A stretch of 64,000 bases of DNA from Candidatus Akkermansia intestinavium (GTDB taxonomy: Bacteria; Verrucomicrobiota; Verrucomicrobiia; Verrucomicrobiales; Akkermansiaceae): NCBI GenBank assembly GCA_019115065.1, contig DXEH01000014.1:10683-74682 (forward strand). The letters are read 5' to 3'. Below, one piece after another: positions 4,781 through 22,306 of the stretch; position 1 is the stretch's first letter, and every line of letters starts with the position of its first letter. The position numbers were made by a program, and so were the translations under genes. The notes below the pieces were generated by a model that had not been told where the DNA came from, ran no database searches, and worked only from the letters and a program-made list of their open reading frames with translations.

Positions 4781-4795
4781 CCTCACCCCACCGAC

Positions 4796-7453
4796 ATGGC
4801 TGAAATCAAACGCACCGAACTCTTCGGCAAGCTCGACGACGTCGCCTACAAGGCCATCGAGAGCGCCACCGTCTTCTGCAAAGTCCGCGGCAACCCCTAC
4901 GTCGAACTCGTGCACTGGATGAATCAGATCATCAACACCGATGAAACGGACATCCACCTCATCCTCCGCCACTTCGAAGCCGACGCCTCCCGCCTCTCCG
5001 CCGATCTGACCACCGCGCTGGACCGCCTGCCGCGAGGCGCCACCAGCATCCGCGACTTCTCCCCGCAAATCGAGCTGGCCATCAAGGAGGCCTGGATGCT
5101 CAGCACCCTGCTCTTCAAGCGCGGCGCCATCCGCACGGGCGACCTGCTGCTCGCCTGCATGCGCACGGGCGAGCTGCGCCGCACCCTCGCCGAGATCTCC
5201 CCGCAGTTCACCAAAGTCAAGGCCGAGGAGCTCTCCGACCACTTCTACACCATCACCAACGGCAGCCGCGAGGAGGGCAGCGCCCCGGCCGACGGCACGG
5301 GGCTGGCCACCGGCAGCATCGGCAGCGAATCCGGCGCCATGGCCCCGGCCGAAATGGGCAAACAGGAGGCCCTCAAGCAGTACTGCACCGACCTCACCGA
5401 AGAGGCCCGCCAAGGCCGCCTCGATCCCGTCGTCGGCCGCGATGCCGAGGTGCGTCGCATCATCGACATCCTCCTGCGCCGCCGCCAGAACAACCCCATC
5501 CTCACCGGTGAAGCCGGCGTCGGCAAGACCGCCGTCGTCGAGGGCCTCGCCCTGCGCATCGCCAGCGGCGACATCCCGGACATGCTCAAAAACGTCCGCC
5601 TGCTCTCGCTCGACCTTCAGGGCCTTCAGGCCGGCGCCTCGATGCGCGGCGAGTTCGAGAACCGCCTCAAGCAGGTCATCGACGAAGTCAAGGCCTCGGA
5701 CACGCCCATCATCATGTTCATCGATGAGGCGCACAACCTCATCGGTGCCGGCGGCTCCGCCGGGCAGGGCGACGCCGCCAACCTGCTCAAGCCCGCGCTC
5801 GCCCGAGGCTCCTTCCGCTGCATCGCTGCCACCACCTGGAGTGAATACAAAAAATACTTCGAGAAGGATCCCGCCCTCACCCGCCGCTTCCAGAACATCC
5901 TCATTGAAGAGCCCGACGACGAAAAGGCGCACGACATGATGATCGCCGTCGGACGCGTCATGGCCCGGCACCACAAAGTCCTCATCCTCGACGAAGCCCT
6001 GCGCGCCGCCGTCACCCTCTCGCGCCGCTACCTTCCCACGCGACAGCTCCCCGACAAAGCCGTCAGCCTGCTCGACACCGCCGCCGCGCGCGTCGCCTTC
6101 TCCCAGAGCAGCGAGCCGGCGGAAATCGAAGACCTGCGGCGCTCCATCGACGCCCTCGACGCCCGCATCGCCGTGCTTGAGCACGAAGAGAAAGTCGGCC
6201 TCGAGCGCGGCGATGAGCTCGCCGAGCTCCGCCGCCAAAAAGCCGATGCCGAGCAGCACCGAGCCGCCCGCCTCGCGGACTGGCAGCGCGAAAAGGAGCT
6301 CGTGGAGCGCGTCGTCGAGCTGCGCAACAGCCTCGATGCCGACGATCTGAAGGACGAAGACGCCGAGCCCCTGCGCCGTGAGCTCAAGGAGCGTGAGACC
6401 GAACTTGCCGACCTTCAGGGGGAACACCCGCTCATCCTTCCGCAGGTCGATGCGCAGGCCGTCGCCGCCGTCATCAGCGAATGGACGGGCATCCCCACCG
6501 GGCGCATGGTCAGCAATGAGCTCGAGAACATCCTGCACCTGGCCGACACCCTGCGCGAGCGCGTCGTCGGGCAGGACCACGGCCTGCACATTATCGCCGA
6601 CCGCATCCTGAGCGCGCGCGCCTCTCTCGCCGACCCCGAGAAGCCCATCGCCGTGCTCATGCTCGCCGGCCCCAGCGGCGTCGGCAAGACGGAAACCGCC
6701 CTCGCCCTCGCCGAGGCCCTCTACGGCGGCGAGCAGAACCTCATCACCATCAACATGAGTGAGTTTCAGGAGGCGCACACCGTCTCCACCCTCAAGGGAG
6801 CGCCTCCGGGATACGTCGGCTACGGCGAAGGCGGCGTGCTCACCGAAGCCGTGCGCCGCAAGCCCTACTCCGTCGTGCTGCTCGACGAGGTGGAGAAAGC
6901 CCACAAGGACGTGCACGAAATCTTCTTCCAGGTCTTTGACAAGGGGCGCATGGAAGACGGCGAGGGGCGCCTCATCGACTTCCGCAACACCATCATCCTG
7001 CTGACCACCAACGTCGGCACCGATGAGATGATGAGCCTCTGCGCCGACCCCGAGCTCATGCCCACGCCCGAGCAGGTCGCCGACGCCATGCACGACGCCA
7101 TGCTGAAGGTCTTCCCGCCGGCCCTGCTCGGCCGCATCGTCGTCATCCCCTATTACCCGCTGTCGCAGGAAGTCATGGCCAAGATCATCGGCCTCAAGCT
7201 CGGCAAGGTCGCTCGCCGCCTCAAAGCCGGCTACGGCACCACCCTCTGCTGGGGCGACGACCTCACCGCCTTCGTCATGGATCAAGCCCGCCGCGCCGAT
7301 GCCGGGGCCCGCATCATCGACAACATCATCACCAACAGCATCCTGCCGCGCCTCAGCTCCCTCATGCTCCAGGCCACGCTTGAGCAGAAGAGCTACACCA
7401 AGGCCGCTCTTTCGGTGCAGGACGACGCCATCGCCATCACCCTCGACGCATGA
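4796..7453 (+). CDS. clpV: T6SS AAA+ ATPase ClpV (TssH)
   Basis: 885 aa with a Clp_N-like N-terminus. It has two Walker A motifs (GEAGVGKTAVVEGLA and GPSGVGKTETALALA) and a coiled-coil middle domain. Confidence 0.95.
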   Translation: MAEIKRTELFGKLDDVAYKAIESATVFCKVRGNPYVELVHWMNQIINTDETDIHLILRHFEADASRLSADLTTALDRLPRGATSIRDFSPQIELAIKEAWMLSTLLFKRGAIRTGDLLLACMRTGELRRTLAEISPQFTKVKAEELSDHFYTITNGSREEGSAPADGTGLATGSIGSESGAMAPAEMGKQEALKQYCTDLTEEARQGRLDPVVGRDAEVRRIIDILLRRRQNNPILTGEAGVGKTAVVEGLALRIASGDIPDMLKNVRLLSLDLQGLQAGASMRGEFENRLKQVIDEVKASDTPIIMFIDEAHNLIGAGGSAGQGDAANLLKPALARGSFRCIAATTWSEYKKYFEKDPALTRRFQNILIEEPDDEKAHDMMIAVGRVMARHHKVLILDEALRAAVTLSRRYLPTRQLPDKAVSLLDTAAARVAFSQSSEPAEIEDLRRSIDALDARIAVLEHEEKVGLERGDELAELRRQKADAEQHRAARLADWQREKELVERVVELRNSLDADDLKDEDAEPLRRELKERETELADLQGEHPLILPQVDAQAVAAVISEWTGIPTGRMVSNELENILHLADTLRERVVGQDHGLHIIADRILSARASLADPEKPIAVLMLAGPSGVGKTETALALAEALYGGEQNLITINMSEFQEAHTVSTLKGAPPGYVGYGEGGVLTEAVRRKPYSVVLLDEVEKAHKDVHEIFFQVFDKGRMEDGEGRLIDFRNTIILLTTNVGTDEMMSLCADPELMPTPEQVADAMHDAMLKVFPPALLGRIVVIPYYPLSQEVMAKIIGLKLGKVARRLKAGYGTTLCWGDDLTAFVMDQARRADAGARIIDNIITNSILPRLSSLMLQATLEQKSYTKAALSVQDDAIAITLDA

Positions 7454-8208
7454 GCCTCACCCTCCCATGCCGACGCCGCGCCGCCGCGGTCTGCCTGATG
7501 CTCCCCCTGCTGTCCGCCGCGGCAGCGGGGGCGGAGGTCGAGTTCGCCGACCAATTTGCCCCCGCCTGGAGCGACGCAGGCGACGCCGAGATTCGGCTGC
7601 AAAGCTCCTTGGAGATCGCTGCGGAAACCGCGTTCACAGCCCCCACCAACAAAGTCCTGACGGGCGCAGCGCCGGGCACCTCTCTGATCTTCAGCGCCGA
7701 GAGCAGCCTCAGTGAGCCGTGGGTCTGCTCCGCGAAGGGAGACATCAGCATCAACAATCTCAGCTTGGCCTCGCGATGCGGCGCCGGACTCTTCTGCGCA
7801 CAGGGGGAGCTCAGTCTCAGCTCCGTCACGCTGCTCATCGACGAGCAGACCGCCACGAACACCACCCTCTTCTGCGGGGAAGGCGGCGTTGCGCTCAGCG
7901 CCGTCACCCTAGACCTCACGCTCGACAGCACGGCGACCCTAGACCCCGGCCTCAGCTATACGCTCTTTGAAACGGGGGGAGCGGCCTTCACGGCGGAAGA
8001 TCTCCGCGCCATCACCCTCACCGGCCCGGGCGGCGCCGCCTCTCATGCCGAGCTCTCGCTAGCGGACGGAGGGCATGCCATCCGCCTCACCCTCACCCCC
8101 GAGCCCGGCAGCACCACCCTCAGCCTGCTGGCTCTCGCGGCACTGGTGCTGCGTCGCCGGCGCCCCGCCGACCGCACGGGGCGGCCGCGACGGGCCCAAA
8201 AAGGCTGA
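7450..8208 (+). CDS. Secreted PEP-CTERM-anchored repeat protein
   Basis: 252 aa. It has an N-terminal signal peptide (MLPLLSAAAAGAE) and beta-repeat-like S/T/L-rich segments. The C-terminus is PEPGSTTLSLLALAALVLRRRRP, that is a PEP motif, a TM segment and an Arg cluster. The start overlaps the clpV stop (ATGA). Confidence 0.75.
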   Translation: MSLTLPCRRRAAAVCLMLPLLSAAAAGAEVEFADQFAPAWSDAGDAEIRLQSSLEIAAETAFTAPTNKVLTGAAPGTSLIFSAESSLSEPWVCSAKGDISINNLSLASRCGAGLFCAQGELSLSSVTLLIDEQTATNTTLFCGEGGVALSAVTLDLTLDSTATLDPGLSYTLFETGGAAFTAEDLRAITLTGPGGAASHAELSLADGGHAIRLTLTPEPGSTTLSLLALAALVLRRRRPADRTGRPRRAQKG

Positions 8209-8286: not shown

Positions 8287-11200
8287 ATGGCCGCAACTCT
8301 GATCACCTACAGTCACAACGTCAAGCCGATCGAGGGCTGCTCCTTCGAAATTGTGAGGCTCATCTCGGGCACGCTCGAACTCTCGGCCCTCTACAGCTTC
8401 AAGTTTCTCATCAAGGTGCGCCCGGGAGATGAGGGACTCACCTCCTGCGTCAAGGCCATGCAGCAGCTCCTCGGGAGCCGCATTCGAGTCGATCTCCGCG
8501 CCGGCAACAGTCGGCTGCAAACCGTGCTCGGCATCATCATGTCCATCGAGTCCAGCACGCAGTACGGCAAGGGAGAAGACGCCGGCTGGTACGTCTGGAC
8601 CGTTCGCCCCGAACTCGCCCAGTCCTGTTACTCGTGCGGGCGGCGCATCTTTGCGGACTCTCAGCAAATCACCAAGGCCGGCGACGGCAACGATTCCGAG
8701 AGCTCCGTAAACCTCATCGACGTGCTGACCGCCTACTACCGGGTGCGCTGGAACACCGACATCACCTTCGATACCGCCGTCCGAAAGCGCATTCCCGATA
8801 CCATCCAACTGCGCCAGAACGACGAAAGTGACTACAACTTCCTCACGCGCCTCCTCGCCGCCTGGGGGCTGGGCTACACCTGGGACTTCAGCGGGGCGCG
8901 TGAATCCATCACCGTTTATGATGCCGTCGACTCCTCCCTGCCCCGCAGTGCGGGCGACCTCAAGAGCTTGACGGCAGACATCCCCACCATGCACCCCGTC
9001 TCCTCCGGCTCCAGCATGTGGAAACTCAGCTACGGCGTTCAAAATCTGCTGCATCGCAGTGATCCTCTGGTTGAAAATTACAACGCCGTCGTCAAGCAGA
9101 ACGAGGGATGCGTGAGCCTTCATGATGAGAGCTGGGACCAGCGCCTCGGCACGAGCTTTGAGCGCGACACGGTCGGCATCTTCCGAAGCCGGAACGACAA
9201 CGGGCGCAGCTGCCACGGCGCCGTGACCGTTCAAGAGGAGGCGGACGCCACCAATGCCTCCCGGCTTCGCCTCAGAGGCAAAGTGCAGTGGGCCACGGAT
9301 ACCGCTCAGTACAGCAGTTCCGACATCTACTACATTACCCGCATGCAGTTCAGCGCGGCCAACAAGTCCTGGGAGGTGATCATCAACGGGCGCACGCCGG
9401 ATGAACAATCCGGTCTCGGCATTCTGCCGAAACCCGTCCATCTGAACAACTCCCCGGATCTGAGCGAAGACGAGCTCATCTGCGGCGACTCCTGGCCCGA
9501 GCCGCAGCCGCGTTACTTCCTCGCCGTCGTTGAAGACGGCAGCATCTTCAGCAACACGGACGAAGACATTGTCAGCACACTGCCGTCCCGCAACCTCTGC
9601 AAAGTCCGCGAAATCGCCCCGCAGAGCATTAAAAAATCGGACAGCGTGCAAATCACGCTCGAGAATACCCTCTGGGTCGAGCTGGGCTCACCCTTTGCGG
9701 ACAAGGATAGCGGTCTGCTCACGCGCCCGCGCAAGGGCAACGTTCTGCTTTGCCTCGATCGCGGAGACCTGAGCATCCCCCTTGCCGTCAGCTCCCTTTT
9801 CCGCGACAATAATGCCGCTCCCTTTGCCGAACTTCACACTCTGGATCGCAAGACCCGCAAAGATGCGAACAGCAATGTCACCGACTACTCTGCCGTCACC
9901 CTGCGCAATCGCACCCACGTTCCGGCACGTGATTTCAGGCTGGAAAAAGCAGGACTGAGCAAAACCGAGCTTGACCTCAATGTTCGCGACGGCTCTCCGG
10001 GCACCGACAGCAGCGCGGCAAGCTCACGGTATGACGTTCAGGCCACGCGCCCCATTTCAGTCAAAGAGCTGGCCTCAAACCGCCTTCCCTTCAACCAAAT
10101 TCAGATGGTCTCGCTGGACAACGGAGTGCAGCCCGTTGAGCAAAAGGAGGCCATCAGCAACGTCTACCTCTCCAGTGCTGTTGTGGAAACCATCACCGGC
10201 ATGGCGCTGGATATGGACAACTCCTCCTACGTCATGGCGGGAGCCGCCAAAGACGCACTCAACACGCTCAACACCCCCATCACCCGACCGCACTTCGAAG
10301 GCATCAGCATGTACACCAACAGCGATATGCTGCTGCAATCCGCCGACCATCAAATCATCAACGCCGGCGGTGAAATCGTCGTCACCGCAGCACAAGCCAT
10401 CACTCTACGCGTCGGGAGATCCTCCATTCGGATTTCCGAAGACGGTGTAGAAATCTCCTGCCCCGCCGGACTGGTGCAAAATCCGGGAGCCTACGCCCCC
10501 TATCACAGCAAAACGACAGGGCAAATCGGCAAATGCTCCAGCAACCAGGGAATGGCACTGGGCGGCTCCATCCAAGTCGGCACCAGTGGCGTCACCGTCA
10601 AAGGGCCCTATGTCACCAACTTCGCCACCAACATGTTCAAGGCGTCGACCTTCCTGGGCTCCTCCTTCACCGTGTCCGACTACGCTGCCAAGCTCTACGC
10701 ACCCACCACAACGATCGTGGGCGGAGCGGCCTGGGTGGACAGCGTCAATAACATCGTAACGGGAGGATTTATCAAAAGCTTGGCCTTTGACACAAGTCTG
10801 TCCGAAACGACGACCTCCGCAGCCTACTCCGGCCCTCTCGTCGACGGTCGGAAGCTCGCAGCTCCGGAACTCTCCAACGGCACAGGGACAGCCGCCTCCA
10901 TTCTGGCAGGTGGCCTCGGTCTGGCCACAAGCCTCATGGGGCACATCAAGAACCAAGGCGCAAGCTACAAGAACCTTGTATCCGTCACGGGAAGCTTGCT
11001 CAAACTCGCGCCGGACACCCTCGAGGAATATGCGGACCACATCAATCGCTATGCCCTCTCCCTGTGTGACAAGGTGGCGCCTCTGGCCGGATTCAAAGCG
11101 CTACAGACGCGGACGGGAATCGAAAATATCGTCTCAACGACTCTAAACGTCCTTTCGTCCGCCACCAAAGCTGCCAACACCATGAGCGGCAAACTCAATG

Positions 11201-11802
11201 CTACATTGACCGCCATGATGACGGGCACGAAAAAATGGCAACATCAAGAAGATCTATATACCCTGATTTGCGGCATCTTATGGCCCGAATCAACCATGGA
11301 GGACAAATATAAAGAAGCAGGAGCAGAAGAGGTCAGAGCGAAGCTGAATCAGGCGAAAAGCGAGAGCAGGTCAGGAAAAATCGCGAGCGAAATCACGACC
11401 GCCTTGGCCGCAGCAATAATTATAGGAATCCCATACAGCATCATCGAAGCTATCTGCAAGCTCTATATCAGCGACGACTGCCACGATGTCAAGGGAAATA
11501 CGACGGAAGCCCTCTATACAAAAAAGGTCACCATCACCAGCAATACCTCCAATCTGCGAAAAGGTCGGAATGTACTGGAAGAGGAGGTCCACTCCGTCAA
11601 CTTCAGGAAAGAAACCGTCATCGGTGCAAATCAACAAGCAAGGCAGACAGACACGAGCATAGACGTTTCTAACAATACCGTGACTACTATAGACTCCACC
11701 GAAATTGCAAGCCTCCGCGCCGCAGTCCGAACCGTCGAAGCGAACTTGGGGCAACATACCGGCAACCTCGCTATCCACGGCGGTGCGGAACAGCATGCAT
11801 GA
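8287..11802 (+). CDS. vgrG: Evolved VgrG (TssI) with ~350-aa C-terminal extension
   Basis: 1171 aa. The N-terminus is gp27/phage late control D-like (QLRQNDESDYNFLTRLLAAWG). It has a gp5 OB / DUF2345-like beta-helix (GGEIVVTAAQAITLRVGRSSIRISEDGVEI). The extra C-terminal region contains hydrophobic segments. Confidence 0.85.
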   Translation: MAATLITYSHNVKPIEGCSFEIVRLISGTLELSALYSFKFLIKVRPGDEGLTSCVKAMQQLLGSRIRVDLRAGNSRLQTVLGIIMSIESSTQYGKGEDAGWYVWTVRPELAQSCYSCGRRIFADSQQITKAGDGNDSESSVNLIDVLTAYYRVRWNTDITFDTAVRKRIPDTIQLRQNDESDYNFLTRLLAAWGLGYTWDFSGARESITVYDAVDSSLPRSAGDLKSLTADIPTMHPVSSGSSMWKLSYGVQNLLHRSDPLVENYNAVVKQNEGCVSLHDESWDQRLGTSFERDTVGIFRSRNDNGRSCHGAVTVQEEADATNASRLRLRGKVQWATDTAQYSSSDIYYITRMQFSAANKSWEVIINGRTPDEQSGLGILPKPVHLNNSPDLSEDELICGDSWPEPQPRYFLAVVEDGSIFSNTDEDIVSTLPSRNLCKVREIAPQSIKKSDSVQITLENTLWVELGSPFADKDSGLLTRPRKGNVLLCLDRGDLSIPLAVSSLFRDNNAAPFAELHTLDRKTRKDANSNVTDYSAVTLRNRTHVPARDFRLEKAGLSKTELDLNVRDGSPGTDSSAASSRYDVQATRPISVKELASNRLPFNQIQMVSLDNGVQPVEQKEAISNVYLSSAVVETITGMALDMDNSSYVMAGAAKDALNTLNTPITRPHFEGISMYTNSDMLLQSADHQIINAGGEIVVTAAQAITLRVGRSSIRISEDGVEISCPAGLVQNPGAYAPYHSKTTGQIGKCSSNQGMALGGSIQVGTSGVTVKGPYVTNFATNMFKASTFLGSSFTVSDYAAKLYAPTTTIVGGAAWVDSVNNIVTGGFIKSLAFDTSLSETTTSAAYSGPLVDGRKLAAPELSNGTGTAASILAGGLGLATSLMGHIKNQGASYKNLVSVTGSLLKLAPDTLEEYADHINRYALSLCDKVAPLAGFKALQTRTGIENIVSTTLNVLSSATKAANTMSGKLNATLTAMMTGTKKWQHQEDLYTLICGILWPESTMEDKYKEAGAEEVRAKLNQAKSESRSGKIASEITTALAAAIIIGIPYSIIEAICKLYISDDCHDVKGNTTEALYTKKVTITSNTSNLRKGRNVLEEEVHSVNFRKETVIGANQQARQTDTSIDVSNNTVTTIDSTEIASLRAAVRTVEANLGQHTGNLAIHGGAEQHA

Positions 11803-11828
11803 CACATTCTCAAACGGAAAATCATCAC

Positions 11829-13034
11829 ATGAGCTGGAACGGTCATCAATTCAACAAACCCTGCATCTTCCTGCACCAAGAAAGCTTGGCCAGCACCGTG
11901 ATGCTCCGAGGATACGCACCGGGAGACGAAGAGAAGGAGCTCTTCCCGACCGATCAAATCGGCAATGAGCTTGCTCTTCAAATTCTGCTGATGCACGGAA
12001 AGACAGAAGAAGCCGTCAATCTGCTCAGCGCCTGTCTTATTCCGCGTGTTGGCGTCTGGTGGGCATACCTCTGCCTGCAACTGGTGCAGGAGGACATCCG
12101 AAAGGATTTGGCCAAAGATGGGTGCACCCCTAAGGAGCGCAGACAAAAAAGGATTGACGCCCTGGCGGCCAAGCTGACCGATACATCCGATATTGAGCAG
12201 GACATCAGCGAACGCATGCAGGGCATCGAACAACTGAGATCTGAGCTCGAGGAAAAGGTCAAAAATCGTGACTACCTGACACCGGATCAGCGTCTGGAGG
12301 CCAAACTCAACTACGTGCGGCAATTTCTGGAACAAATGCGCGACGCACTTCCTCAGGAAGCTCTCGGGGACCCCAATGCCCCCATGCCTATGGAAGACGT
12401 CGTCAACCGATTCAAAGACATGGCCCTTCGGGAGCTGGATCAATACTATGAATCCCTCAATCCCAAGCCGGAATCAGAGCACCCTCTTTCCTTCGGCCCC
12501 GTCTACGAAGCGATCAAGAAGAAGACCGAAGCCATCAAGCCGGCCATCGACAAGGAGATGAACAAGCACTTCCCCCTGAAGATCAAGGGACTGCCGCCCA
12601 AGCCCTCACCGGCGACCAAGACGGCGGCCGTTGAGGCGGCTCTGCGCTGGCTGCTCGTGCCCACCGATGAAAACGGGCAGCTCGCCTGTCAGGCCGCCAT
12701 CGCGGCCAAGAGCGGGCCGGAGTCCATGCTGGCCTACGCTGCCTTCTGGAGCTCGACCAACCTCAAGACGGAGACCGGCATCGCCCCCACCAACCCGGCG
12801 CTTCCCCCGCTGGGCATCAGCAAGACCCTCCTTCAGCTGGCTCTGCTGGAGGGCGGCGAGATGGACTACGACGCACGCTACCGGAAGTTTCTCGAGCTGG
12901 GCATCGAGTGCGCCGACGGCACCTGCACGTGGGATGAGCACGGCAAGCCCGTGCGAGCGTCCGGCGAGCCGCGCCCCGAGGGCGGCGACGACCGCGTCTT
13001 TCGCACGCGCTCCGGCTTCGGGCGCGAATCGTAA
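11829..13034 (+). CDS. Conserved unknown protein, VgrG-cassette partner (paralogue of 16803-18014)
   Basis: The start is set at MSWNGHQF by alignment with the paralogue (MSWNGQQF). It is predicted all-helical with no signal peptide or TM segment. The shared blocks are RVGVWWAYLCL and ALRWLLVP.DENG.LAC.AAIAA.SGPE.MLAYAAFWSSTNL. Confidence 0.6.
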   Translation: MSWNGHQFNKPCIFLHQESLASTVMLRGYAPGDEEKELFPTDQIGNELALQILLMHGKTEEAVNLLSACLIPRVGVWWAYLCLQLVQEDIRKDLAKDGCTPKERRQKRIDALAAKLTDTSDIEQDISERMQGIEQLRSELEEKVKNRDYLTPDQRLEAKLNYVRQFLEQMRDALPQEALGDPNAPMPMEDVVNRFKDMALRELDQYYESLNPKPESEHPLSFGPVYEAIKKKTEAIKPAIDKEMNKHFPLKIKGLPPKPSPATKTAAVEAALRWLLVPTDENGQLACQAAIAAKSGPESMLAYAAFWSSTNLKTETGIAPTNPALPPLGISKTLLQLALLEGGEMDYDARYRKFLELGIECADGTCTWDEHGKPVRASGEPRPEGGDDRVFRTRSGFGRES

Positions 13035-13073
13035 AGCCCCGTCGGTCCTCAAGCAAGGGTTTGATTCTTCATC

Positions 13074-16000
13074 ATGCGCCTGACTCTGACATTGACGCTC
13101 TGCGACGGCCAGCGGGCCCGAACCGCTCAGCCAGAGGAGAGCGGTGCAGCTGCATCGAGCCCCCTTGAAATCACCCCCACCCGCATCATCGCCGGGCAGG
13201 AGGCGGTCTCATCGCTCTACGCCTACGAGATTCTCGTCAAAACGCCCGAGGAGCCCGGCCGCATTCTGGAGCAGCTCGGCAAGCGCGTCAGTCTGCTGGT
13301 GAAGGAAGGCGACAAAGTGTTGCACCGCGTCTTCGGCGTCGTGATGAGCATCGAATCGACCCGGAGCTACACCCCCGCCTCGGCGGAACAGACGGAGGCG
13401 GGCAAAGAGCTCTCCTGGTACAAATGGACCATCCGCCCGGCGCTCGCCAAGGCCTGTTACTCGCGCAACCGCCTCGTCTACAATTCCGACGAGCTGAAAA
13501 ATATCAGCCTTGCCGGGGTGGATGAAAGCGCCTCTCCGGCCGAGAAGCTGCTGCACCTGCTGACGTCGCGCTGGGACGCGGGTTCCCTCTGCATCAGCGC
13601 CAAGGCCCGGCAGCACCTGCCCTCCTTCATTCAGCTCATCCAGAACGACGAGAGCGACTACAACTTCTTCACCCGCCTGCTGGCGGCCTGGGGGCTGGCC
13701 TTTGTCTGGACGATGCCCGACGCGGAGGACGGCGCGGAGCAGAGGGAAAGGCTCTGCCTGTTTGACGCCGTCGAAGCGGACCGCGAACCCTTTGCGATGA
13801 AGGCTGAGGGAGAGAGAGCGAAGGAGGACGCGGCCCTTGCCGTGATGGAGCCCGTCTCCTCCCACGCGAGTCTGTGGAAGGCGCACTACGGCGTCGGGGA
13901 TCTCAGCGAGGGAGAAGTCGCGCTGCAAAACTACCGAGACGTTGAGAAAGGTGCGGCGGGAGCTTCCGCGGATGCGGTGCGCTTCAGCGTTCATGATGAG
14001 AGCTGGGATCAGCTGACCGCCGCTCCCGAGGCTCAGCGAATCCTCGCCACGGCCCGTGCCGCCCGAGCTGTGAGCCGCTGCTGCCACGGGCAATACCGCT
14101 ACCCGAACGGCAGCGAGGCCTTTCAGGCGCTCTCCCCCGGCCGCAAGGTCGCGTGGAGGGAGGGCTCGCGCCTTCAGGGGAACCTGGCGCCGGAGTACGC
14201 CATCATCCGCCAGAGCGTCGCCGCCACGGATCAGAACTGGGTCGTCACCATCGACGCCGTGCCGACCGGCGTCGACACGGCCATCGGGGTGCTGCCGCGA
14301 CCCGTGCGCGTCGCGGATCGCCCCAATCTCTCCGACAGTCCGCTGACGGAGGCCGAGGCTTGGCCCGAGCCCCGTCTGCGCTGCTTCCTCGCCGTGGTGG
14401 AGGACACATCCTGCTACGGCGAAGACGACACACGCAACCTCTGCAAGGTGCGGGAAATTGCCGCTTGGAGCGCCGCGCAGGAGGGGGGCGCGAAGCTGTC
14501 GAACGCCCTCTGGGTTGAGGTGGCCTCGCCCTATGCCGATAAAAACAGCGGTCTGCTCGCTCGCCCGCGCATCGGCAACGTCCTCGTCTGCCTCGACCGT
14601 GGCGATCTGAGCATTCCGCTGGCGCTCACGGCGCTCTTCCGCAACAGCAATGAGGCCCCCCTGGCCCGCCTGATGACCATCGATCGACGGACGCGCACGG
14701 CGGCCTCCGCCCCCACCACGGACGTCTCCGCCGTCACCCTGCGCAACCGCACCCATCTGCCCAAGCGCACCTACACGGCTTCCGCTGAGGATTCCGGCCG
14801 CGAAATGGACCTCGATGTGCCGAGCGTCGTCCACTCGGGCAGCTCCGGCTCCGCGACGTCCGCCTCTTCCGGCTCCTCTTCCGGATCCTCCGACGCAGCC
14901 AAGTCCGGCAGCTCAGGCAGCTCAGGCTCCTCGGGCACCGCTGCTTCCGACTCCGGAAGCTCCGGCTCCGCCTCCTCCAACAGCAGTACGGGCAGCGAGG
15001 GAGGCTCCGCCACCTCGAAGGGGGACACTCAATCGGGCAGCGGCAGCAGAGACAGCAGCGGGGGCAGTGACAAGGTGGCCGAGGATGTCACTCGGCCGAT
15101 GTCCGTCACCGAATTGGCGGCGAACCCGCTGCCCTTCAGCCAGATTCAGCTCATCTCGCTCGACAACGGCGTCCGGCCGGTTGAGCAGCGGGAGGACATC
15201 ACCAACACCTACCTCGCCAGCAGTGTTGTGGAGACCGTCATGGGCTTCGTCTCCGAGGCGGACTCCTCCAGCGGCTACGCCATGGCCGGCGCCGCCCAGA
15301 GTGCCCAGACCATCTACAACAGCCCGATCACCCGCCCGCACTTTGAGGGCGTCAACATCTACTCCAACAGCGACGTTCTGCTGCAATCGGCGGATCACCA
15401 AATCGTCAATGCCGGCGGTGAAATCGTCGTCACGGCCGCGCAGGGCATCACCCTGCGGGTCGGCAAGTCCTCCATCCGCATCACCGAGTCCGGCATTCAG
15501 ATTCAGAGCGCCACGGGCAAGGTGCTCAACCCCGGAGCCTACCCGGCCTACAACACCGAGGATCAGGGGCAGTCCACCCACCTCATGTCCAACGCCGGCT
15601 TGCCCATGAGCGGCTCGATTCTGGTTGACTCCAGCGGCGTGGCGACCAAGGGGCCCTACGTCACCTCCATCGCCACCAATCAAGTCAAGTCCTCCACGGT
15701 TCTGGGCTCCGCACTCACCGTCACGGACTTCTCAGCCAAGCTCTACGCGCCGGAGATCACCATCATCGGCGGGGCCACCATTCAGGACACGTTTCTCAAC
15801 GGTCTGATCAAGGGCGTCTTGACGGGCAAGGACATCTACACGACGGCCTCGGGCACGGACTCGTTTTACAACAGTGCTCTCGTCGACGGATGGAAGACGA
15901 AGGGCCTCATCGCTGTGGACTTCGCGGGCTCGGCCATCAGCACGGTCACGCAGGTGATCGGCTGGGCCGGCGCGCTGGGCATCAGCGACAAGTTCTCCTC

Positions 16001-16793
16001 CCTGCTCTCCGTCACGGGCAGCATGATCAAGATGAACGCCACAGCCATGACGCAGGCCTCTCCGCAGATCTGGCACTACCACAACCATCTGTCGGAAATC
16101 GACACGCCGCTGGCGGGCTTCTTCGCCATGAGTGAGCGATCGTCCCTGGCGAACATCGCCAAAAAAATACCGTCCTATTCATGGGTGCTGGGGGGAGCCG
16201 TGACCGCCGGGATGAGCGTCGCCGGCGGAATCGCGGGATCGGTGTTCGGCAAGAAGGCGGACGACGCGGATTCCTTTACCAAGCCGATCCCCACCGATCG
16301 CCCGAACACCACCTCCTTTGAGGACACCCACGGCCTGGGCAGCTCGATCGGCGCAGGCGTCGGTCTTGCGGCGGGTCTGAGCGCGTCGCTGATCGCCAAG
16401 TTCACGAGCAAAATCACGGCGTCTCAGCTCATGGAGACTTTGGGCAAAAAGCTCTACCTCTCCAAACTTCAGATGAGCGTGGGCATGGCCAAGCTCGACG
16501 CCCTGAAGAATGAGCAGACGGCCCTTCAGAAGCAAACCGATGCTCTGGACAAGTCCGATCTGGCGCTCATGCTGGAGGAGAGTGCCGCCAGTGAGAAAAA
16601 GCAGACCGTTGCCTCCGACGACCAAGGGGTCGCGGCCAACGATCAGAAGGTTTCCGAGAGCGACCAAGCCGTCGACAAAAACGACAGCATCATCAGCCAC
16701 AGCGCTCAGAAAGTCTCCTCGAATGAACAGGACTCCATCAACACACAAACCGTCTCGCTGAACACGCACAGCGGCACGAGCCTCAATATCTGA
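13074..16793 (+). CDS. vgrG: Evolved VgrG (TssI), second copy, with Ser/Gly linker and glycine-zipper C-terminal extension
   Basis: 1239 aa and collinear with the first VgrG. Shared blocks include NDESDYNFFTRLLAAWG, LCKVREIA, LWVEVASPYADKNSGLLARPR and GGEIVVTAAQGITLRVGKSSIRITESGIQI. Confidence 0.85.
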   Translation: MRLTLTLTLCDGQRARTAQPEESGAAASSPLEITPTRIIAGQEAVSSLYAYEILVKTPEEPGRILEQLGKRVSLLVKEGDKVLHRVFGVVMSIESTRSYTPASAEQTEAGKELSWYKWTIRPALAKACYSRNRLVYNSDELKNISLAGVDESASPAEKLLHLLTSRWDAGSLCISAKARQHLPSFIQLIQNDESDYNFFTRLLAAWGLAFVWTMPDAEDGAEQRERLCLFDAVEADREPFAMKAEGERAKEDAALAVMEPVSSHASLWKAHYGVGDLSEGEVALQNYRDVEKGAAGASADAVRFSVHDESWDQLTAAPEAQRILATARAARAVSRCCHGQYRYPNGSEAFQALSPGRKVAWREGSRLQGNLAPEYAIIRQSVAATDQNWVVTIDAVPTGVDTAIGVLPRPVRVADRPNLSDSPLTEAEAWPEPRLRCFLAVVEDTSCYGEDDTRNLCKVREIAAWSAAQEGGAKLSNALWVEVASPYADKNSGLLARPRIGNVLVCLDRGDLSIPLALTALFRNSNEAPLARLMTIDRRTRTAASAPTTDVSAVTLRNRTHLPKRTYTASAEDSGREMDLDVPSVVHSGSSGSATSASSGSSSGSSDAAKSGSSGSSGSSGTAASDSGSSGSASSNSSTGSEGGSATSKGDTQSGSGSRDSSGGSDKVAEDVTRPMSVTELAANPLPFSQIQLISLDNGVRPVEQREDITNTYLASSVVETVMGFVSEADSSSGYAMAGAAQSAQTIYNSPITRPHFEGVNIYSNSDVLLQSADHQIVNAGGEIVVTAAQGITLRVGKSSIRITESGIQIQSATGKVLNPGAYPAYNTEDQGQSTHLMSNAGLPMSGSILVDSSGVATKGPYVTSIATNQVKSSTVLGSALTVTDFSAKLYAPEITIIGGATIQDTFLNGLIKGVLTGKDIYTTASGTDSFYNSALVDGWKTKGLIAVDFAGSAISTVTQVIGWAGALGISDKFSSLLSVTGSMIKMNATAMTQASPQIWHYHNHLSEIDTPLAGFFAMSERSSLANIAKKIPSYSWVLGGAVTAGMSVAGGIAGSVFGKKADDADSFTKPIPTDRPNTTSFEDTHGLGSSIGAGVGLAAGLSASLIAKFTSKITASQLMETLGKKLYLSKLQMSVGMAKLDALKNEQTALQKQTDALDKSDLALMLEESAASEKKQTVASDDQGVAANDQKVSESDQAVDKNDSIISHSAQKVSSNEQDSINTQTVSLNTHSGTSLNI
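14835..15070 (+). repeat. Low-complexity Ser/Gly-rich coding repeat inside vgrG copy 2
   Basis: The translation is SGSSGSATSASSGSSSGSSDAAKSGSSGSSGSSGTAASDSGSSGSASSNSSTGSEGGS... It is absent from copy 1 at the equivalent position. Coordinates are approximate. Confidence 0.7.
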
Positions 16794-16802
16794 CACTCCG
16801 CT

Positions 16803-18014
16803 ATGTCCTGGAACGGCCAACAGTTCAGCAAGCCCTTCATCATGCTGCATCAGGAGGATCTCGCCTCCGCCCTGCACCTGCGCGGCTACGCCCCGACGGA
16901 GGACGTTCTCGCGCTCTTCCCGAGCGAGCAGATCAGCACCGAGCTGGCTCTCCGGATTCTGCTGACGCAGAACCTCATCGAGGAGGCCGTCAACCTGCTC
17001 TGCCGCGCCATCCTTCCCCGCGTGGGCGTGTGGTGGGCCTACCTATGTCTGCGCATGGTCAGCGAGGATGTCGCCCGCGACGAGGCGAGCGACGGGCTCA
17101 GCCCGGCCGAGCGGCGCCGAAAGGCGGCGCGGGATCTGGCGGCCCGCCTGAGCGACAGCTCCGATGTTCAGGCTCTCGTCGATGATCAGAAGCAGCAGCT
17201 CGACGCCGCAACTCGGGAGCTTGAGAAGGAGGCCGGCGAGCAGGGTTACCTCGACCCGGCCAAGCGCATCGAGCTGAAGCTCGCTTGGGTGCGCCAAGCG
17301 ATGGCGCAGCTGGAGGCTTCGCTGCCGCCGGGCTCGCTGGGCAGCGCGGACGGGCCGATGATTCTGCCCGAGGTCGTTCGCAGCATGCAGGAGACGGCCG
17401 AGCAGGATTTCGCGCAGATCGTGCAGCGCGTCACGCCGGCGGAGCCGTCGGTGACGGCACCGTCCTCGGATCGCATTTTTGAAGCGGCGAGAGCCAAGAC
17501 TCGCGCCGTGCCGGCGGCCGTCGAGGCCGAGATGAAAAAACACTTCCCGCTTCAGTTCCGGGGGCTGCCGCCCAAGCCCTCGGCGGCGACGAAGGCGGCC
17601 GCGGCGGAGGCGGCGCTGCGCTGGCTGCTCGTGCCCAGCGACGAGAACGGAGAGCTCGCCTGCCGGGCTGCCATCGCGGCGCAGAGCGGGCCCGAGGCGA
17701 TGCTGGCCTACGCCGCCTTCTGGAGCTCGACGAATCTCAGGACGGAGACGGGCGTTGCGCCGACGAATCCCTCGCTGCCCCCGACGGGTATCAGCAAGAC
17801 GCTCCTTCAGCTCGCGCTGCTGGAGGGCGGCAGCATGGACTACGACACGCGCTACGCCAAGTTTCTCGAGCTGGGCATCCGCTGCGCGGACGGCACCTGC
17901 ACCTGGGACGAATTCGGCCATCCGGTTCAGCAGAACGCGGGAGAATTGCGGCATGACAATGATCGGGACTTGCATGCGCGCTCGGGCTTTGGTAGAATGG
18001 GACAAGGATCTTGA
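16803..18014 (+). CDS. Conserved unknown protein, VgrG-cassette partner (paralogue of 11829-13034)
   Basis: 403 aa with the same N- and C-terminal modules as the first partner and a divergent charged central region. Confidence 0.6.
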   Translation: MSWNGQQFSKPFIMLHQEDLASALHLRGYAPTEDVLALFPSEQISTELALRILLTQNLIEEAVNLLCRAILPRVGVWWAYLCLRMVSEDVARDEASDGLSPAERRRKAARDLAARLSDSSDVQALVDDQKQQLDAATRELEKEAGEQGYLDPAKRIELKLAWVRQAMAQLEASLPPGSLGSADGPMILPEVVRSMQETAEQDFAQIVQRVTPAEPSVTAPSSDRIFEAARAKTRAVPAAVEAEMKKHFPLQFRGLPPKPSAATKAAAAEAALRWLLVPSDENGELACRAAIAAQSGPEAMLAYAAFWSSTNLRTETGVAPTNPSLPPTGISKTLLQLALLEGGSMDYDTRYAKFLELGIRCADGTCTWDEFGHPVQQNAGELRHDNDRDLHARSGFGRMGQGS

Positions 18015-18020: not shown

Positions 18021-18599
18021 ATGAGGAAGCGCATCCAACAATTTCTGCACAACTTGCTGGCGCTGGCACCGCTGCTCGCGCTGTCGGCCTGCAGCGGCAG
18101 CGGGCACATGCTGCCGCTGAGCGTGCAGGACTGCCGCGCCGCGGCGTCCTCCGAGGCCGCGCTGGTGGATATCTACGCCGTGCGGGGGGAGGCGGAGCGC
18201 CTGCGCCAGACGGTCACGCCCGTGGATGAATACTTCGCGACGTCGGGGCTTCCCTCGCGGCCGGGCAATGTCTATCGCTGTTATCTGGATGCCGCCACGC
18301 CGGTTGTGACGCTTCAGCCGAAGCGGGAGGCGGTCTGCAAGGCCTGGCTGGCCGACGGGGCCGATACGCTCATCGCCGTGACGCCGAAGCCGGCCCGCCG
18401 CAGCACGACGCAGTCGGATCCCCGCCGCGTGGTCTTTCCGCTGAGCCCCGAGGCCTATCCCTCGGGGACGCATAGCCTCGTGCTGCGCCTAACGGACGGT
18501 GGCCTCACGGTGGCGCCCTCGACGGAGCGCCTGCGCCCGCCGGAGGCTTCCCCATCAAGGTCCGCCGCGTCAAGGTCCGCCCCGCCGACACAGCCGTAG
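18021..18599 (+). CDS. Lipoprotein, TssJ-like paralogue
   Basis: It has a signal peptide with lipobox LLALSAC. It is collinear with the tssJ product at 19258: VDIYAV/VDIVEA, DEYF/DDYF, KAWLADGADTLI/SWLEKRGASHLV and DPRRVVFPL/DMRRLTLPL. Confidence 0.5.
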   Translation: MRKRIQQFLHNLLALAPLLALSACSGSGHMLPLSVQDCRAAASSEAALVDIYAVRGEAERLRQTVTPVDEYFATSGLPSRPGNVYRCYLDAATPVVTLQPKREAVCKAWLADGADTLIAVTPKPARRSTTQSDPRRVVFPLSPEAYPSGTHSLVLRLTDGGLTVAPSTERLRPPEASPSRSAASRSAPPTQP

Positions 18600-18712: not shown

Positions 18713-19000
18713 ATGCCGACTCCCATCATGGTCACCACCGGAACCTCCGTCACCGGAGATCTCATCACCGGCACGGCTCCCACCTTTCTCGTCAAGGGGC
18801 TGCCCGTCGCCACCATGACGTCCCCGGTCTCCGGAGCCGCCTGCACGGGCGTGATCGCCAACACGACGGCGGTCACCAAGATCGTCAACGGGCTGCCGCT
18901 GGCCAATGTGACGTCGATGGCCACAGGCGTCAATCCGGCGACGGGGGTGCCCGTGACGACGTCGGCGATGGTGACCAGCGGCATCAACTACATCTGCTGA
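18713..19000 (+). CDS. PAAR-like spike-tip protein
   Basis: 95 aa. It is Gly/Thr/Val-rich with the repeated V(K/N)GLP(V/L)A..TS motif typical of PAAR-like cones. It lies within the T6SS cluster. Confidence 0.65.
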   Translation: MPTPIMVTTGTSVTGDLITGTAPTFLVKGLPVATMTSPVSGAACTGVIANTTAVTKIVNGLPLANVTSMATGVNPATGVPVTTSAMVTSGINYIC

Positions 19001-19257: not shown

Positions 19258-19782
19258 ATGCCTGCACTCCCCTCCATGAAACGCCTGCTCCTCCTGATCT
19301 CCGGTGCGCTTGCTCTCGCCTCCTGCCAGAGCTCGGCGCCGAGTGCGTACAACCTCAGTGTGTCCTATGACCCTGTCACGATTGAGCGCTTCCGCATCTT
19401 CCCCTCGGTCGAGGTTGATATTGTCGAGGCCAATGAGACGACGCTCAAGCAGCTGGAGCAGACCGAGATCGACGATTACTTCGACCCGGCCAACGTGCTG
19501 CGCGATTCGCTGCGCAAAAAGACCTTTTACTTCAGCGAAGAGGACTGCGAGAAAAAGACGCTCAGCCGCGATGACAAGGTGTGGCAGAGTTGGCTCGAGA
19601 AGCGCGGGGCCAGCCACCTCGTGCTCTTCATCAATCTGCCTCGGGACGGCGCCAAGGGGCCGGACATGCGGCGCCTGACGCTGCCGCTGGCGGCTGACCG
19701 CTGGGACGGAGAGGACATTGACGTGTCGATCATTCCGGCGGGACTTCTCCTGCAGACGCCGATCAAGCCGGAGGATAACTAA
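19258..19782 (+). CDS. tssJ: T6SS outer-membrane lipoprotein TssJ
   Basis: 174 aa with lipobox ALALASC. Size and position directly upstream of tssK-tssL-tssM fit TssJ. The true start may be the MKRLLLL codon at 19276. Confidence 0.65.
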   Translation: MPALPSMKRLLLLISGALALASCQSSAPSAYNLSVSYDPVTIERFRIFPSVEVDIVEANETTLKQLEQTEIDDYFDPANVLRDSLRKKTFYFSEEDCEKKTLSRDDKVWQSWLEKRGASHLVLFINLPRDGAKGPDMRRLTLPLAADRWDGEDIDVSIIPAGLLLQTPIKPEDN

Positions 19783-19833: not shown

Positions 19834-21219
19834 ATGTTGCAATACTCCCCCAGTCTCAGTTGGACGGACGGCGTTTTTCTGCGCCCCCACCATTTTCAGC
19901 AGGTTCAGCAGGGTCTTGCTCTGGCTCGCAGCAGTGAGCGCAGCCTGGCGCTGCCCTACGCCTACGGGCTCGCTCATCTCGACATCGACGAGACGGCTCT
20001 CGAGCATTTTCACTTCAGCATTCAGTCCCTTCAGGCGATTCTGCCGGGCGGTACGGAGGTGGATCTGCCGCGCAACGCGGAGGCCGAGGCTCTCGATCTG
20101 ACGCCGGAGCTCAGCACGGCTTCGACGCTGACGGTGTATCTGGCGGTGCCGCCGCTGCACGAGGGCGAGGGCAATGTGGCCGGGGACGAGGCGGCGGGGG
20201 CGGCTCCCCGACGCTTCACGGCTGAGCCTCAGATGTGCTATGATCTCAATGCGGGGGGCAACGAGCAGCCCATCATGTTCCGCCGCCTGAAGCTCCTGCT
20301 CTCGACGCGCCCGGAGGCGCTGCCGGGCTATGAGAAGCTGCCGCTGATGCGGCTGGTGTGTCACCGCAGTGCCGACGGACGGCCCTCGCTGAGCCGCGAT
20401 GCGAGTTACATGGCGCCGTCGCTGACGCTCAGCGCGGCCCCGGAGCTTCTGCACCGCCTCGAGGCGCTCTGCTCGCATCTCTCCCACATTGCGACGAACT
20501 TGGTGACGTCGCTGCGCGAACGCGAGATGCAGACGCAGGCGCGCGCGACGGAGCGGCTGGAGAAGATGCTCAAGTGCGGTTTGGTTCAGTCGTCGCTTCA
20601 GGCGCTGCGCCAGCTTGCGGCGATTCCGTCGGCGACGCCACAGGCGCTCTACACCGAGCTCTGCCGCCTGCTGATGCAGCTGGCGGCCTTCCGCCCCCTT
20701 GAGGATGTGCCCGAGCCGGCGCTCTACCGGCACGATGACTGCCTGCCGCTCTTCACGGAGGTGATGGAGGCGATCTACCGCCTGACGGCGGCAGAGGCCA
20801 CGGAGTGGTGCGTGCGCGTCGAGTTGCGACACGATGAGACAGCCGAGGCCTGGGTCGGCGATCTGAAAGAGGAGTGGCTGGGCTCCGTGCGCGCCGTCTG
20901 CGTCTGCGTGCTCAGCTCGGGGCACCCCCGCCGCGTGGCCGATCTCGTGGAGGCGGGCGATGCCTTCAAGCTCACGGCGGCCTCGCAGTGCCACATGCGC
21001 ATTCGCGGTGTTCGGCTTGAGGAGCAGCGCGTGCCCTCGCCCCTGCTGCCGGCCGGCGACAAGCGTCTGTGGTTCTGCGCCGCGCGACCGCTGGAGGATG
21101 ACACCTGGCAGGACATCGCGGCCGAGCGCCGCTGCGCTCTGACGTGGAGCCCGCAGATTCTGCCGGACACGCAGGCGGAGCTCTATCTGATTCTCTCTAC
21201 TCCCGCTCAACGCTCATGA
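19834..21219 (+). CDS. tssK: T6SS baseplate protein TssK (ImpJ/VasE)
   Basis: 461 aa. The N-terminus LSWTDGVFLRPHHFQQ is a hallmark of TssK. Confidence 0.9.
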   Translation: MLQYSPSLSWTDGVFLRPHHFQQVQQGLALARSSERSLALPYAYGLAHLDIDETALEHFHFSIQSLQAILPGGTEVDLPRNAEAEALDLTPELSTASTLTVYLAVPPLHEGEGNVAGDEAAGAAPRRFTAEPQMCYDLNAGGNEQPIMFRRLKLLLSTRPEALPGYEKLPLMRLVCHRSADGRPSLSRDASYMAPSLTLSAAPELLHRLEALCSHLSHIATNLVTSLREREMQTQARATERLEKMLKCGLVQSSLQALRQLAAIPSATPQALYTELCRLLMQLAAFRPLEDVPEPALYRHDDCLPLFTEVMEAIYRLTAAEATEWCVRVELRHDETAEAWVGDLKEEWLGSVRAVCVCVLSSGHPRRVADLVEAGDAFKLTAASQCHMRIRGVRLEEQRVPSPLLPAGDKRLWFCAARPLEDDTWQDIAAERRCALTWSPQILPDTQAELYLILSTPAQRS

Positions 21220-22295
21220 CTCTCTGCGAGCTCTTCACCCCGCTCATCACCTACCTTGTCAACAGCCGCTGTGAGGCGGCCCGCGGCCATGCGCCGGACC
21301 AGGAGGTGCTCATGAGCCATCTCATGCGCGAGCTGGCCCGCATTCGCAAAACGGGTGCGGCGGCGCGCGAGCTGCCGCAGGAGGCGCTGGAGGATGCCTG
21401 CCGCTACTCGGCGTTCTACATCGACTACATGGTGCACGAGGGGGCCTTTCCCTATGCGCAGCAGTGGCAGGATCTGGGGCGCAGCCGGTACAATGAGCTG
21501 GCGGGCGACGAGAAGTTTTTCGACTACATGCGCCGATGGCTCGATGAGGACACGCCGATGGCTCACGAGCATTTGCGCCTGATGTACGACATGGTGGCCA
21601 GCGGTTTCTCCGGCTCGCTGGAGCGCCGCAGCGTGCGGCTGGAGGAGTTGATGCGGCGTGCAGCCGAGCGCTTGGCGGTGATGCCCGAGGAGGAGGCTGC
21701 AAAGGCGCTGCTCCGGCAGGGCTCGGAGGCCGTTTCCCGCCCCATCCGGGCGCGCCGCCCCGTGCTGAGCGGTCTGCTCACCGGCGGTGCAGGGGCTGCG
21801 GCTCTGCTGCTGGCCTGCGTTTATTACCTGCACAGCTACCGCAGCGCGACGGATGCTCTGCGCAGCGAGCTCAGCGAGACGCAGGAGCTCATTGAGGATC
21901 GCGCCATGCGCCACGCGCTCAACGCCGATACGCTTGTCGCCAGCCCCGTGAGTGCCCCCGCCGGCGAGGCGACGCACGAGAGCTTCCCCCTCCGCGGGGC
22001 TGAGATACCGCCGGCCTTGCAGCACGAGGCTGCGGCTGCGGCTGCGGCGACGCTGACGGAAACGACGACGACGGCGGCTACACTCCCGCAGGCCGCTGAT
22101 TCCGGCACGAGGACCGCGTCGCCTGAGGCCGGAGCAAACGGAGCCGACACCTCGGCTGATGACGCGCGGACGGTAGTCGATGAAATTCCCGACGCCGCCG
22201 GATCTCCCGCCCTTGCCCCCTCCGAGGCCGCCGCCCTCGACGCGCCGCAGAAGGCCGAGCCGGGCGCGCCGGCACCGGTCTCCGCATCCCACTGA
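21216..22295 (+). CDS. tssL: T6SS membrane protein TssL (DotU/ImpK family)
   Basis: The ATG at 21216 overlaps the tssK stop (ATGA). It has a DotU-like cytoplasmic domain, a single TM segment (LSGLLTGGAGAAALLLACVYYL) and a low-complexity Ala/Thr/Pro tail. No OmpA-like domain is visible. Confidence 0.8.
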   Translation: MTLCELFTPLITYLVNSRCEAARGHAPDQEVLMSHLMRELARIRKTGAAARELPQEALEDACRYSAFYIDYMVHEGAFPYAQQWQDLGRSRYNELAGDEKFFDYMRRWLDEDTPMAHEHLRLMYDMVASGFSGSLERRSVRLEELMRRAAERLAVMPEEEAAKALLRQGSEAVSRPIRARRPVLSGLLTGGAGAAALLLACVYYLHSYRSATDALRSELSETQELIEDRAMRHALNADTLVASPVSAPAGEATHESFPLRGAEIPPALQHEAAAAAAATLTETTTTAATLPQAADSGTRTASPEAGANGADTSADDARTVVDEIPDAAGSPALAPSEAAALDAPQKAEPGAPAPVSASH

Positions 22296-22306
22296 CTTTC
22301 TCTCTC

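Follow-up and report, generated by a model that had tools for sequence, protein, structure and literature searches.

Two split-domain DUF6931 proteins paired with extended VgrG spikes in an Akkermansia type VI secretion cluster are candidate spike accessory proteins

The window analyzed here is a 64-kb stretch of contig DXEH01000014.1 from Candidatus Akkermansia intestinavium (host GC ~65%), the first 28.7 kb of which hold a type VI secretion system (T6SS) cluster on the + strand; the reference-genome relatives closest to this region are all Akkermansia metagenome-assembled genomes (MAGs). Coordinates are positions in this window, and all genes listed (Table 1) are on the + strand. Inside the cluster, two consecutive cassettes, here called A (8287–13034) and B (13074–18014), each pair the gene of an extended VgrG spike protein with the gene of a ~400-aa partner, with the open reading frames (ORFs) just as an earlier note on this DNA had described them and a similarity between the cassettes that chance could not produce. 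Little space separates the genes, with 9 nt from the vgrG-B stop codon to the gene for partner B and 6 nt from there to the lipoprotein gene that follows. We found that both partners belong to the catalogued Pfam family DUF6931 (PF22011), a domain of unknown function, and that in each of them a helical insertion of ~170 aa interrupts the single DUF6931 domain.

Family membership follows from profile scores well above the Pfam cut-off of 27 (partner A 71.4 bits, E 1.1e-19; partner B 64.7 bits, E 1.2e-17), the profile matching each partner in two stretches so that both halves of the 145-position domain are present. Relatives are already named “DUF6931 family protein” by NCBI and UniRef, and no NCBIfam model matched the partners. 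The earlier note had proposed a new family, which these scores and names overturn; its view that the function is uncharacterised stands, as the confident match is to a domain of unknown function and not to a characterised family with an unrelated role, and as a literature search that included full text (DUF6931/PF22011, Akkermansia T6SS, PA1664 and Vibrio plasmid T6SS) returned no functional study and a single passing mention in a preprint. The ORF of partner A spans 11799–13034, within which the MSWNG codon at 11829 is the likely start, giving 401 aa: all homologues begin at MSW(N/D)G, gene callers on near-identical contigs also give 401 aa, and the in-frame ATG at 11799, which overlaps the vgrG-A stop codon, is probably not used.

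An exhaustive profile search recovered 477 DUF6931 clusters (50% identity, E ≤ 1e-3), most of them proteins of ~190 aa. Their matches to the window protein come in two pieces that abut in the short protein, whose first 80 residues pair with residues ~26–90 of the query and whose remainder pairs with residues ~260–370. Because these short members hold the full PF22011 profile (positions 1–145) in a single stretch and align to both halves of partner B (residues 13–87 and 258–373 in a 114-sequence alignment), the partners are each a single domain split by an insertion. The C-terminal core half provides the best Pfam stretch (profile positions 42–144). Unlike the ~190-aa members, then, the partners have a non-contiguous domain and make up a long, split-domain subgroup, an architecture that also occurs in Spirochaetaceae/Treponema and in gut Alphaproteobacteria MAGs. 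A third architecture, seen in many proteins of ~300–316 aa (for example P0136, P0144 and P0316), has an N-terminal FHA domain fused to DUF6931. Reading the N- and C-terminal modules of the partners as internal repeats of one another, as had been suggested, was rejected (hhalign of the module alignments, probability 0.2%), the modules being instead two halves of one domain.

The AlphaFold2 model of partner B, built from 114 diverse sequences (pLDDT 88.7, pTM 0.75), is almost all helical, with a core of ~9 helices plus a small β-hairpin and an insertion of five long helices; it replaced an earlier model from 34 close homologues that was poor (pLDDT 66) and gave an uninformative fold search. Foldseek comparison of the newer model returned no match in the PDB (best E 2.2, TM ≤ 0.15) or in BFVD (best E 0.73), and when profiles of the long-type and of the short-type alignment were searched against PDB sequences, the yield was weak coiled-coil noise only. 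Residues conserved across the family (R73, W77, W78, C82, W274, P278, A305, F306, W307, G358 and G364) look, as far as sequence conservation tells, like a packing or binding surface and not an active site. Furthermore, a hydropathy scan found neither a signal peptide nor a transmembrane (TM) segment in the partners, as the earlier note had read them, and the family as a whole is cytoplasmic-looking and mostly helical, with no catalytic-looking set of conserved residues. One alternative is that the partners are secreted cargo, either effectors or co-effectors riding on VgrG. The slot between vgrG and PAAR genes often holds cargo effectors, and one orphan island (L023, Table 2) is indeed ordered vgrG, a 184-aa gene, DUF6931, PAAR and peptidase. 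However, beyond the missing catalytic-looking residues, Pfam gave no toxin-domain match, copy A has no adjacent immunity candidate (vgrG-B comes immediately next), and the conservation of the gene inside core operons across phyla would be unusual for an effector, so that we regard a cargo role as highly improbable.

The two cassettes are, on sequence comparison, ancient paralogues. Partners A and B share 57% identity end to end (E 2e-162), and VgrG-A and VgrG-B share 39% in two blocks (E 3e-116 and 1e-102). At the DNA level the alignment is patchy, the best segment reaching 82% over 397 nt in the C-terminal part of the partner genes (12541–12937 versus 17515–17911) and the rest lying at ~70%. 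Two other Akkermansia MAGs (L001 and L002) carry separate counterparts of the cassettes (83% and 65% for A, 77% and 75% for B), and L004 likewise holds two cassettes. Because DNA similarity is confined to patches and other MAGs have their own A and B counterparts, the duplication is older than speciation within Akkermansia, which speaks against a recent tandem duplication, if that was what the earlier note implied. GC content is 0.54–0.60 in cassette A (for vgrG-A, this compares with 0.68 in the core genes) and 0.60–0.68 in cassette B and the T6SS core genes; the low value of cassette A may mean that its past differs, for example that it was acquired by recombination from a relative of lower GC.

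Divergence between the paralogues is distributed unevenly. By region, the partners are 62% identical in their N-terminal part, 36% in the centre and 85% in the C-terminal part, and the VgrGs are 41% identical in their N-terminal part, 62% in the β-helix middle and 22% in the C-terminal extension. The previous description of the partner modules as near-identical thus fits the C-terminal module and not the N-terminal one, and the description of divergent centres was borne out. A co-variation comparison of partner insertion with VgrG extension over the Akkermansia cassettes involved a small set, shaped by phylogeny and containing one false pair, and the A-versus-B figures alone are used here.

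The two large genes encode divergent VgrGs, an assignment backed by their location in a T6SS cluster. Both proteins exceed the Pfam cut-off of 30.1 for Phage_GPD, the gp27-like hub (VgrG-A 41.4 bits, VgrG-B 46.0 bits), and score 15.7 and 23.6 bits, respectively, for Phage_base_V, the gp5-like OB fold (cut-off 23.8); VgrG-A also has a weak match to Pfam DUF2345, and the NCBIfam VgrG models fall far under their cut-off (TIGR03361, 35.6 bits for A and 51.6 bits for B versus 186). VgrG-A comprises a gp27/gp5-like body followed by a C-terminal extension of ~340 aa. The extensions of the two VgrGs gave nothing significant in Pfam, and the hydropathy scan marked a single TM-like segment in each (aa 1039–1057 in A, aa 1090–1110 in B). 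Separately, VgrG-B contains a Ser/Gly-rich, low-complexity linker of ~85 aa (aa ~585–670) between its gp5-like and β-helix parts that is missing from VgrG-A. A profile hidden Markov model (HMM) of small single-TM proteins from other loci (L018–L021, described below) weakly matched the extreme C-termini of several Akkermansia VgrGs (E 1e-3 to 0.2) at a constant position, which in the window falls in the C-terminal ~150 aa of VgrG-A and VgrG-B (Table 1); the separate small single-TM gene of other lineages may have become fused to vgrG in Akkermansia.

We inspected the neighbourhoods of seven Akkermansia-type MAG loci and 14 loci outside Akkermansia (Table 2). DUF6931 as a family is conserved across several phyla, among them the Proteobacteria, Planctomycetes, Verrucomicrobia and Spirochaetes. 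A DUF6931 gene lies directly 3′ of a vgrG in all seven Akkermansia-type loci. Outside Akkermansia, each of the 14 loci proved to be a T6SS or vgrG locus, with a vgrG or gp5-type spike gene no more than two genes upstream in 10 of them; directly 3′ of DUF6931 stands tagH in five and PAAR in two, and tssA is another frequent follower. The proposal that these are T6SS accessory genes tied to vgrG was therefore upheld, homologues being found nearly always in T6SS or vgrG loci and usually directly 3′ of vgrG. In four of six proteobacterial loci the gap from vgrG to DUF6931 is −4 to +4 nt, and such short gaps suggest that the two genes are translationally coupled in several loci. The VgrGs beside short-type members are plain (630–690 aa), and most end in the usual β-helix tip.

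Table 2 Gene order around DUF6931 in the 14 loci outside Akkermansia
Locus	Source	Gene order or setting
L011	Vibrio crassostreae plasmid	tssI, DUF6931, PAAR
L012	Aureimonas	hcp, tssI, DUF6931, tssA, tssB
L013	Azospirillum	DUF6931, tagH, tssK, L, M
L014	Mesorhizobium	few kb past tssM and kinase/phosphatase genes
L015	Leisingera	DUF6931, tagH, tssA
L016	Paraburkholderia	tssI, DUF6931, tagH, tssK
L017	Sphingomonas	tssI, DUF6931, tagH
L018	Alphaproteobacteria MAG	at least 3 complete cassettes (spike-like + small TM protein + DUF6931), 4th DUF6931 at edge, then lipoprotein, tssK, L, M
L019	metagenome contig	DUF6931, tssA, vgrG
L020	Treponema MAG	DUF6931, spike-like, small protein, DUF6931, lipoprotein, tssK
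L021	metagenome contig	PAAR, VgrG, small protein, DUF6931, lipoprotein, tssK
L022	orphan island	VgrG, FHA-DUF6931, 1657-aa protein
L023	orphan island	VgrG, 184-aa protein, DUF6931, PAAR, C39 peptidase
L024	metagenome contig	hcp, vgrG, DUF6931, tagH, tssJ, tssK, L, M, tagF

Several of these loci have features of their own. In the gut Alphaproteobacteria MAG (L018, 1–11191), and also in the Treponema MAG (L020, 3–3964), the repeated units consist of a 541–880-aa protein, a 128–150-aa single-TM protein and a ~400-aa DUF6931 protein, and the DUF6931 gene at the edge of L018 suggests a fourth cassette. The large proteins of these two loci match only the gp5 OB-fold and β-helix part of a VgrG (aa ~470–830 of the L021 VgrG); they lack the gp27-like half and gave no Phage_GPD match. 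In the orphan island L022, the gene directly after vgrG encodes an FHA-DUF6931 fusion (10001–10948) and is followed by that of a 1657-aa protein of unknown function. Three of the Akkermansia-type loci (L005, L006 and L007, all MAGs, two of them labelled Akkermansia) gave no T6SS core genes by tblastn with the core proteins of the window (~10 kb either side in L005 and L006), and they look like orphan spike islands in which only the first spike has a partner.

The position directly 3′ of an extended VgrG is also the usual place of an immunity gene, and the partners might accordingly be immunity proteins against a toxin domain in the adjacent VgrG extension, a notion with which the divergence of the partner centre alongside that extension would agree and which appears in one preprint, where a Pseudovibrio homologue is labelled “putative DUF6931/SsdA-like immunity”. 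The strongest objection comes from the short type, which sits after plain VgrGs that carry no toxin and inside core operons. In addition, a core conserved across phyla in front of tagH or tssA is unlike fast-evolving immunity genes, FHA fusions would be hard to account for, and the VgrG extensions look membrane-active by virtue of their TM-like helix, yet the partners have neither a TM segment nor a signal peptide. The PDB sequence-profile searches returned no immunity protein at E ≤ 10, nor any similarity that would back the SsdA-like label. We consider an immunity function very unlikely.

The recurrent proximity to tagH raises another explanation, namely that DUF6931 has a general part in assembly or regulation, alongside the FHA protein TagH and the threonine-phosphorylation pathway, perhaps as a partner or target that gates firing, and has no specificity for any particular VgrG. 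The five loci with tagH directly downstream, the common FHA-DUF6931 fusions, the strong conservation of the core across phyla and the two loci in which the gene heads a tagH operon with no adjoining vgrG (L013 and L015) are all in keeping with it. Against this, the window cluster and the long-type loci L018, L020 and L021 showed neither tagH nor any kinase or phosphatase gene; a general factor need not be duplicated with every spike paralogue, as DUF6931 is in the window, L004 and L018; and some DUF6931 genes stand in orphan vgrG islands at a distance from any core genes (L022 and L023). A partner specific to its spike is preferred over a general factor because of this duplication with each spike paralogue, because of the apparent translational coupling to vgrG, and because of the presence in orphan islands, and we rate the general factor as an unlikely alternative. 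The tagH adjacency and the FHA fusions do suggest that the other side of the job of DUF6931 faces the assembly or activation machinery.

Taken together, the DUF6931 partners could be cytoplasmic, VgrG-cognate accessory proteins of the adaptor-chaperone kind that serve spike assembly or loading, and are probably neither toxins nor immunity proteins; we give this reading an even chance. Each DUF6931 protein would bind its own VgrG trimer in the cytoplasm of the producer and would help the spike to mature and to be loaded onto the baseplate and the membrane complex. Contacts with conserved machinery, for instance the VgrG body or the TagH/baseplate side, would be made by the conserved core. The insertion of the Akkermansia type, which evolves fast, would serve to recognise or shield the C-terminal extension of the cognate VgrG, which evolves equally fast and is partly hydrophobic. 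This last role is proposed for the insertion because insertion and extension diverge together between A and B (36% and 22%, compared to 62–85% for the partner core and 62% for the β-helix) and because the extension has a TM-like helix.

Several observations weigh against the accessory reading. Pairing is not universally one-to-one, since L005–L007 have the order vgrG, DUF6931, vgrG, vgrG, with one partner for three spikes. In four of the 14 loci outside Akkermansia the DUF6931 gene does not adjoin vgrG, standing instead at the head of a tagH operon (L013, L015), before tssA (L019) or a few kb from the cluster (L014). The short type pairs with VgrGs that lack an extension, and chaperoning an extension is therefore not the ancestral job of the family. 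Shared phylogeny confounds the joint divergence of insertion and extension, the PDB and BFVD offer no structural relative to anchor a function, and the proposed mechanism is drawn from gene context and conservation.

A bolder version of the accessory reading goes further. DUF6931 might be an unrecognised, widely conserved T6SS component that forms a physical link from a given VgrG spike to the FHA/TagH side of the assembly machinery and thereby acts as a checkpoint on spike loading. No tagH was seen in the lineage of Akkermansia, Treponema and gut Alphaproteobacteria; there the insertion would have taken over this coupling, and a dedicated copy for each spike variant would permit a choice among alternative spikes. 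We regard this version as speculative and unlikely.

Of the known systems, the adaptors and chaperones linked to vgrG (DUF4123, DUF1795 and DUF2169) are those that the partners most resemble in their way of working, but the partners belong to none of these families, as the earlier note had judged by eye: all three were missing from the Pfam scan of the partners at E ≤ 1, and Foldseek gave no PDB match. DUF4123 adaptors (Tap-1/TEC/VasW) resemble the partners in being encoded directly 3′ of vgrG and in combining a conserved with a variable part, which would suit proteins that join conserved machinery to variable partners, but their genes normally precede a separate cargo effector, whereas the partner genes are followed by vgrG or a lipoprotein gene. 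Eag chaperones (DUF1795) are small proteins of mixed α/β fold that serve prePAAR effectors and shield TM-like segments before firing. The role proposed for the partners is comparable, in that a protein of the spike would have its hydrophobic, TM-like segments shielded until firing; DUF6931 proteins, however, are almost all helical, ~190–400 aa long and without fold similarity to Eag. DUF2169 adaptors, like DUF6931, are found between vgrG and a PAAR-type gene (L011, L023 and the published Pseudovibrio description).

Within the family itself, the short-type proteins of ~190 aa (Vibrio, Aureimonas, Azospirillum, Paraburkholderia, Sphingomonas and Planctomycetes) share with the window proteins the domain, its residues (PR..VWW..C; RW...P; AAFW) and the T6SS slot, typically right after vgrG. 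The window partners differ in being twice as long on account of the insertion, in accompanying extended VgrGs of ~1200 aa and in forming two cassettes, whereas the short type is single-copy, follows plain VgrGs and often adjoins tagH. TagH/Fha is linked to DUF6931 as a frequent immediate neighbour and through FHA domains fused to DUF6931 in many proteins, but the partners themselves lack an FHA domain, and the window cluster shows no tagH. The orfX gene of the Pseudomonas aeruginosa H2-T6SS (PA1664) lies directly before fha2 and has no assigned function (PMC9846239). This is the same position as that of DUF6931 before tagH, a likeness that concerns gene order alone.

The remaining genes of the cluster (Table 1) include a 252-aa protein with an N-terminal signal-like segment, encoded between clpV and vgrG-A and kept in L001 at 56%; its C-terminus is weakly PEP-CTERM-like (Pfam E 0.005 and an NCBIfam PepA-like match at E 7e-5, both below cut-off). 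The 192-aa predicted lipoprotein encoded after the last DUF6931 gene has a lipobox-like N-terminus and is matched in the Akkermansia loci L001–L004 at 49–59% (tblastn). For the 95-aa PAAR-like protein, gene callers on near-identical contigs place a gene at the same position. The 174-aa lipoprotein is probably TssJ-like and occupies the same slot as a homologous lipoprotein family of L018, L020 and L021, the similarity having been judged by eye. TssM is unusually long, and its Pfam match is to the IcmF-related N-terminal domain only; the long-type DUF6931 loci L018–L021 encode similar TssM proteins (1449–1588 aa), which suggests a distinct T6SS lineage common to Akkermansia, Treponema and some gut Alphaproteobacteria.

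Table 1 Features of the T6SS cluster in the 64-kb window
Feature	Position	Strand	Description or basis
hcp-like gene, 3′ end	window start	+	own reading of translated sequence
tagJ (ImpE), tssE, tssF, tssG, clpV, then gene of 252-aa signal-peptide protein	within 1–8208	+	Pfam, NCBIfam
252-aa protein	7450–8208	+	
vgrG-A	8287–11802	+	extended VgrG spike protein, 1171 aa
C-terminal ~150 aa of VgrG-A	11350–11802	+	weak match to HMM of small single-TM proteins
DUF6931-A (partner A)	11829–13034	+	401 aa; PF22011
Helical insertion of partner A	12090–12593	+	~aa 88–255; placed by alignment with partner B and short members
vgrG-B	13074–16793	+	extended VgrG, 1239 aa
Ser/Gly-rich linker of VgrG-B	14826–15083	+	
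C-terminal ~150 aa of VgrG-B	16340–16793	+	weak match to HMM of small single-TM proteins
DUF6931-B (partner B)	16803–18014	+	403 aa; PF22011
N-terminal core half of partner B	16839–17063	+	aa 13–87; R73, W77, W78, C82 (PRVGVWWAYLC)
Helical insertion of partner B	17064–17573	+	aa 88–257, ~170 aa; missing from ~190-aa members
C-terminal core half of partner B	17574–17921	+	aa 258–373; W274, P278, A305, F306, W307, G358, G364
192-aa predicted lipoprotein	18021–18599	+	after last DUF6931 gene
95-aa PAAR-like spike-tip protein	18713–19000	+	Pfam PAAR_motif E 3.9e-4, 21 bits, below cut-off of 27
174-aa lipoprotein	19258–19782	+	lipoprotein signal; directly 5′ of tssK
tssK, tssL, tssM, tssA	19834–28686	+	Pfam T6SS_VasE, DotU, IcmF-related_N, ImpA_N
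TssM	22307–27343	+	1678 aa

The family itself was already catalogued; what is new here is the long, split-domain form of DUF6931 in paired cassettes with extended VgrGs. How T6SS spikes mature, are chosen and are loaded is partly understood, and the known adaptors (DUF4123, DUF1795 and DUF2169) cover some systems only. Both gene position and gene fusion tie DUF6931 to VgrG and to FHA/TagH, and its genes lie within T6SS core operons or next to them. The family looks worth studying and accessible to experiment, while current understanding of T6SS stays in place. Should DUF6931 prove to load particular spikes, T6SS would gain another class of accessory protein, and it would become clear how clusters with several spike cassettes keep their spikes apart. 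In addition, the window shows several extended spikes in one T6SS of Akkermansia-like gut bacteria, which is relevant to how bacteria compete in the gut.

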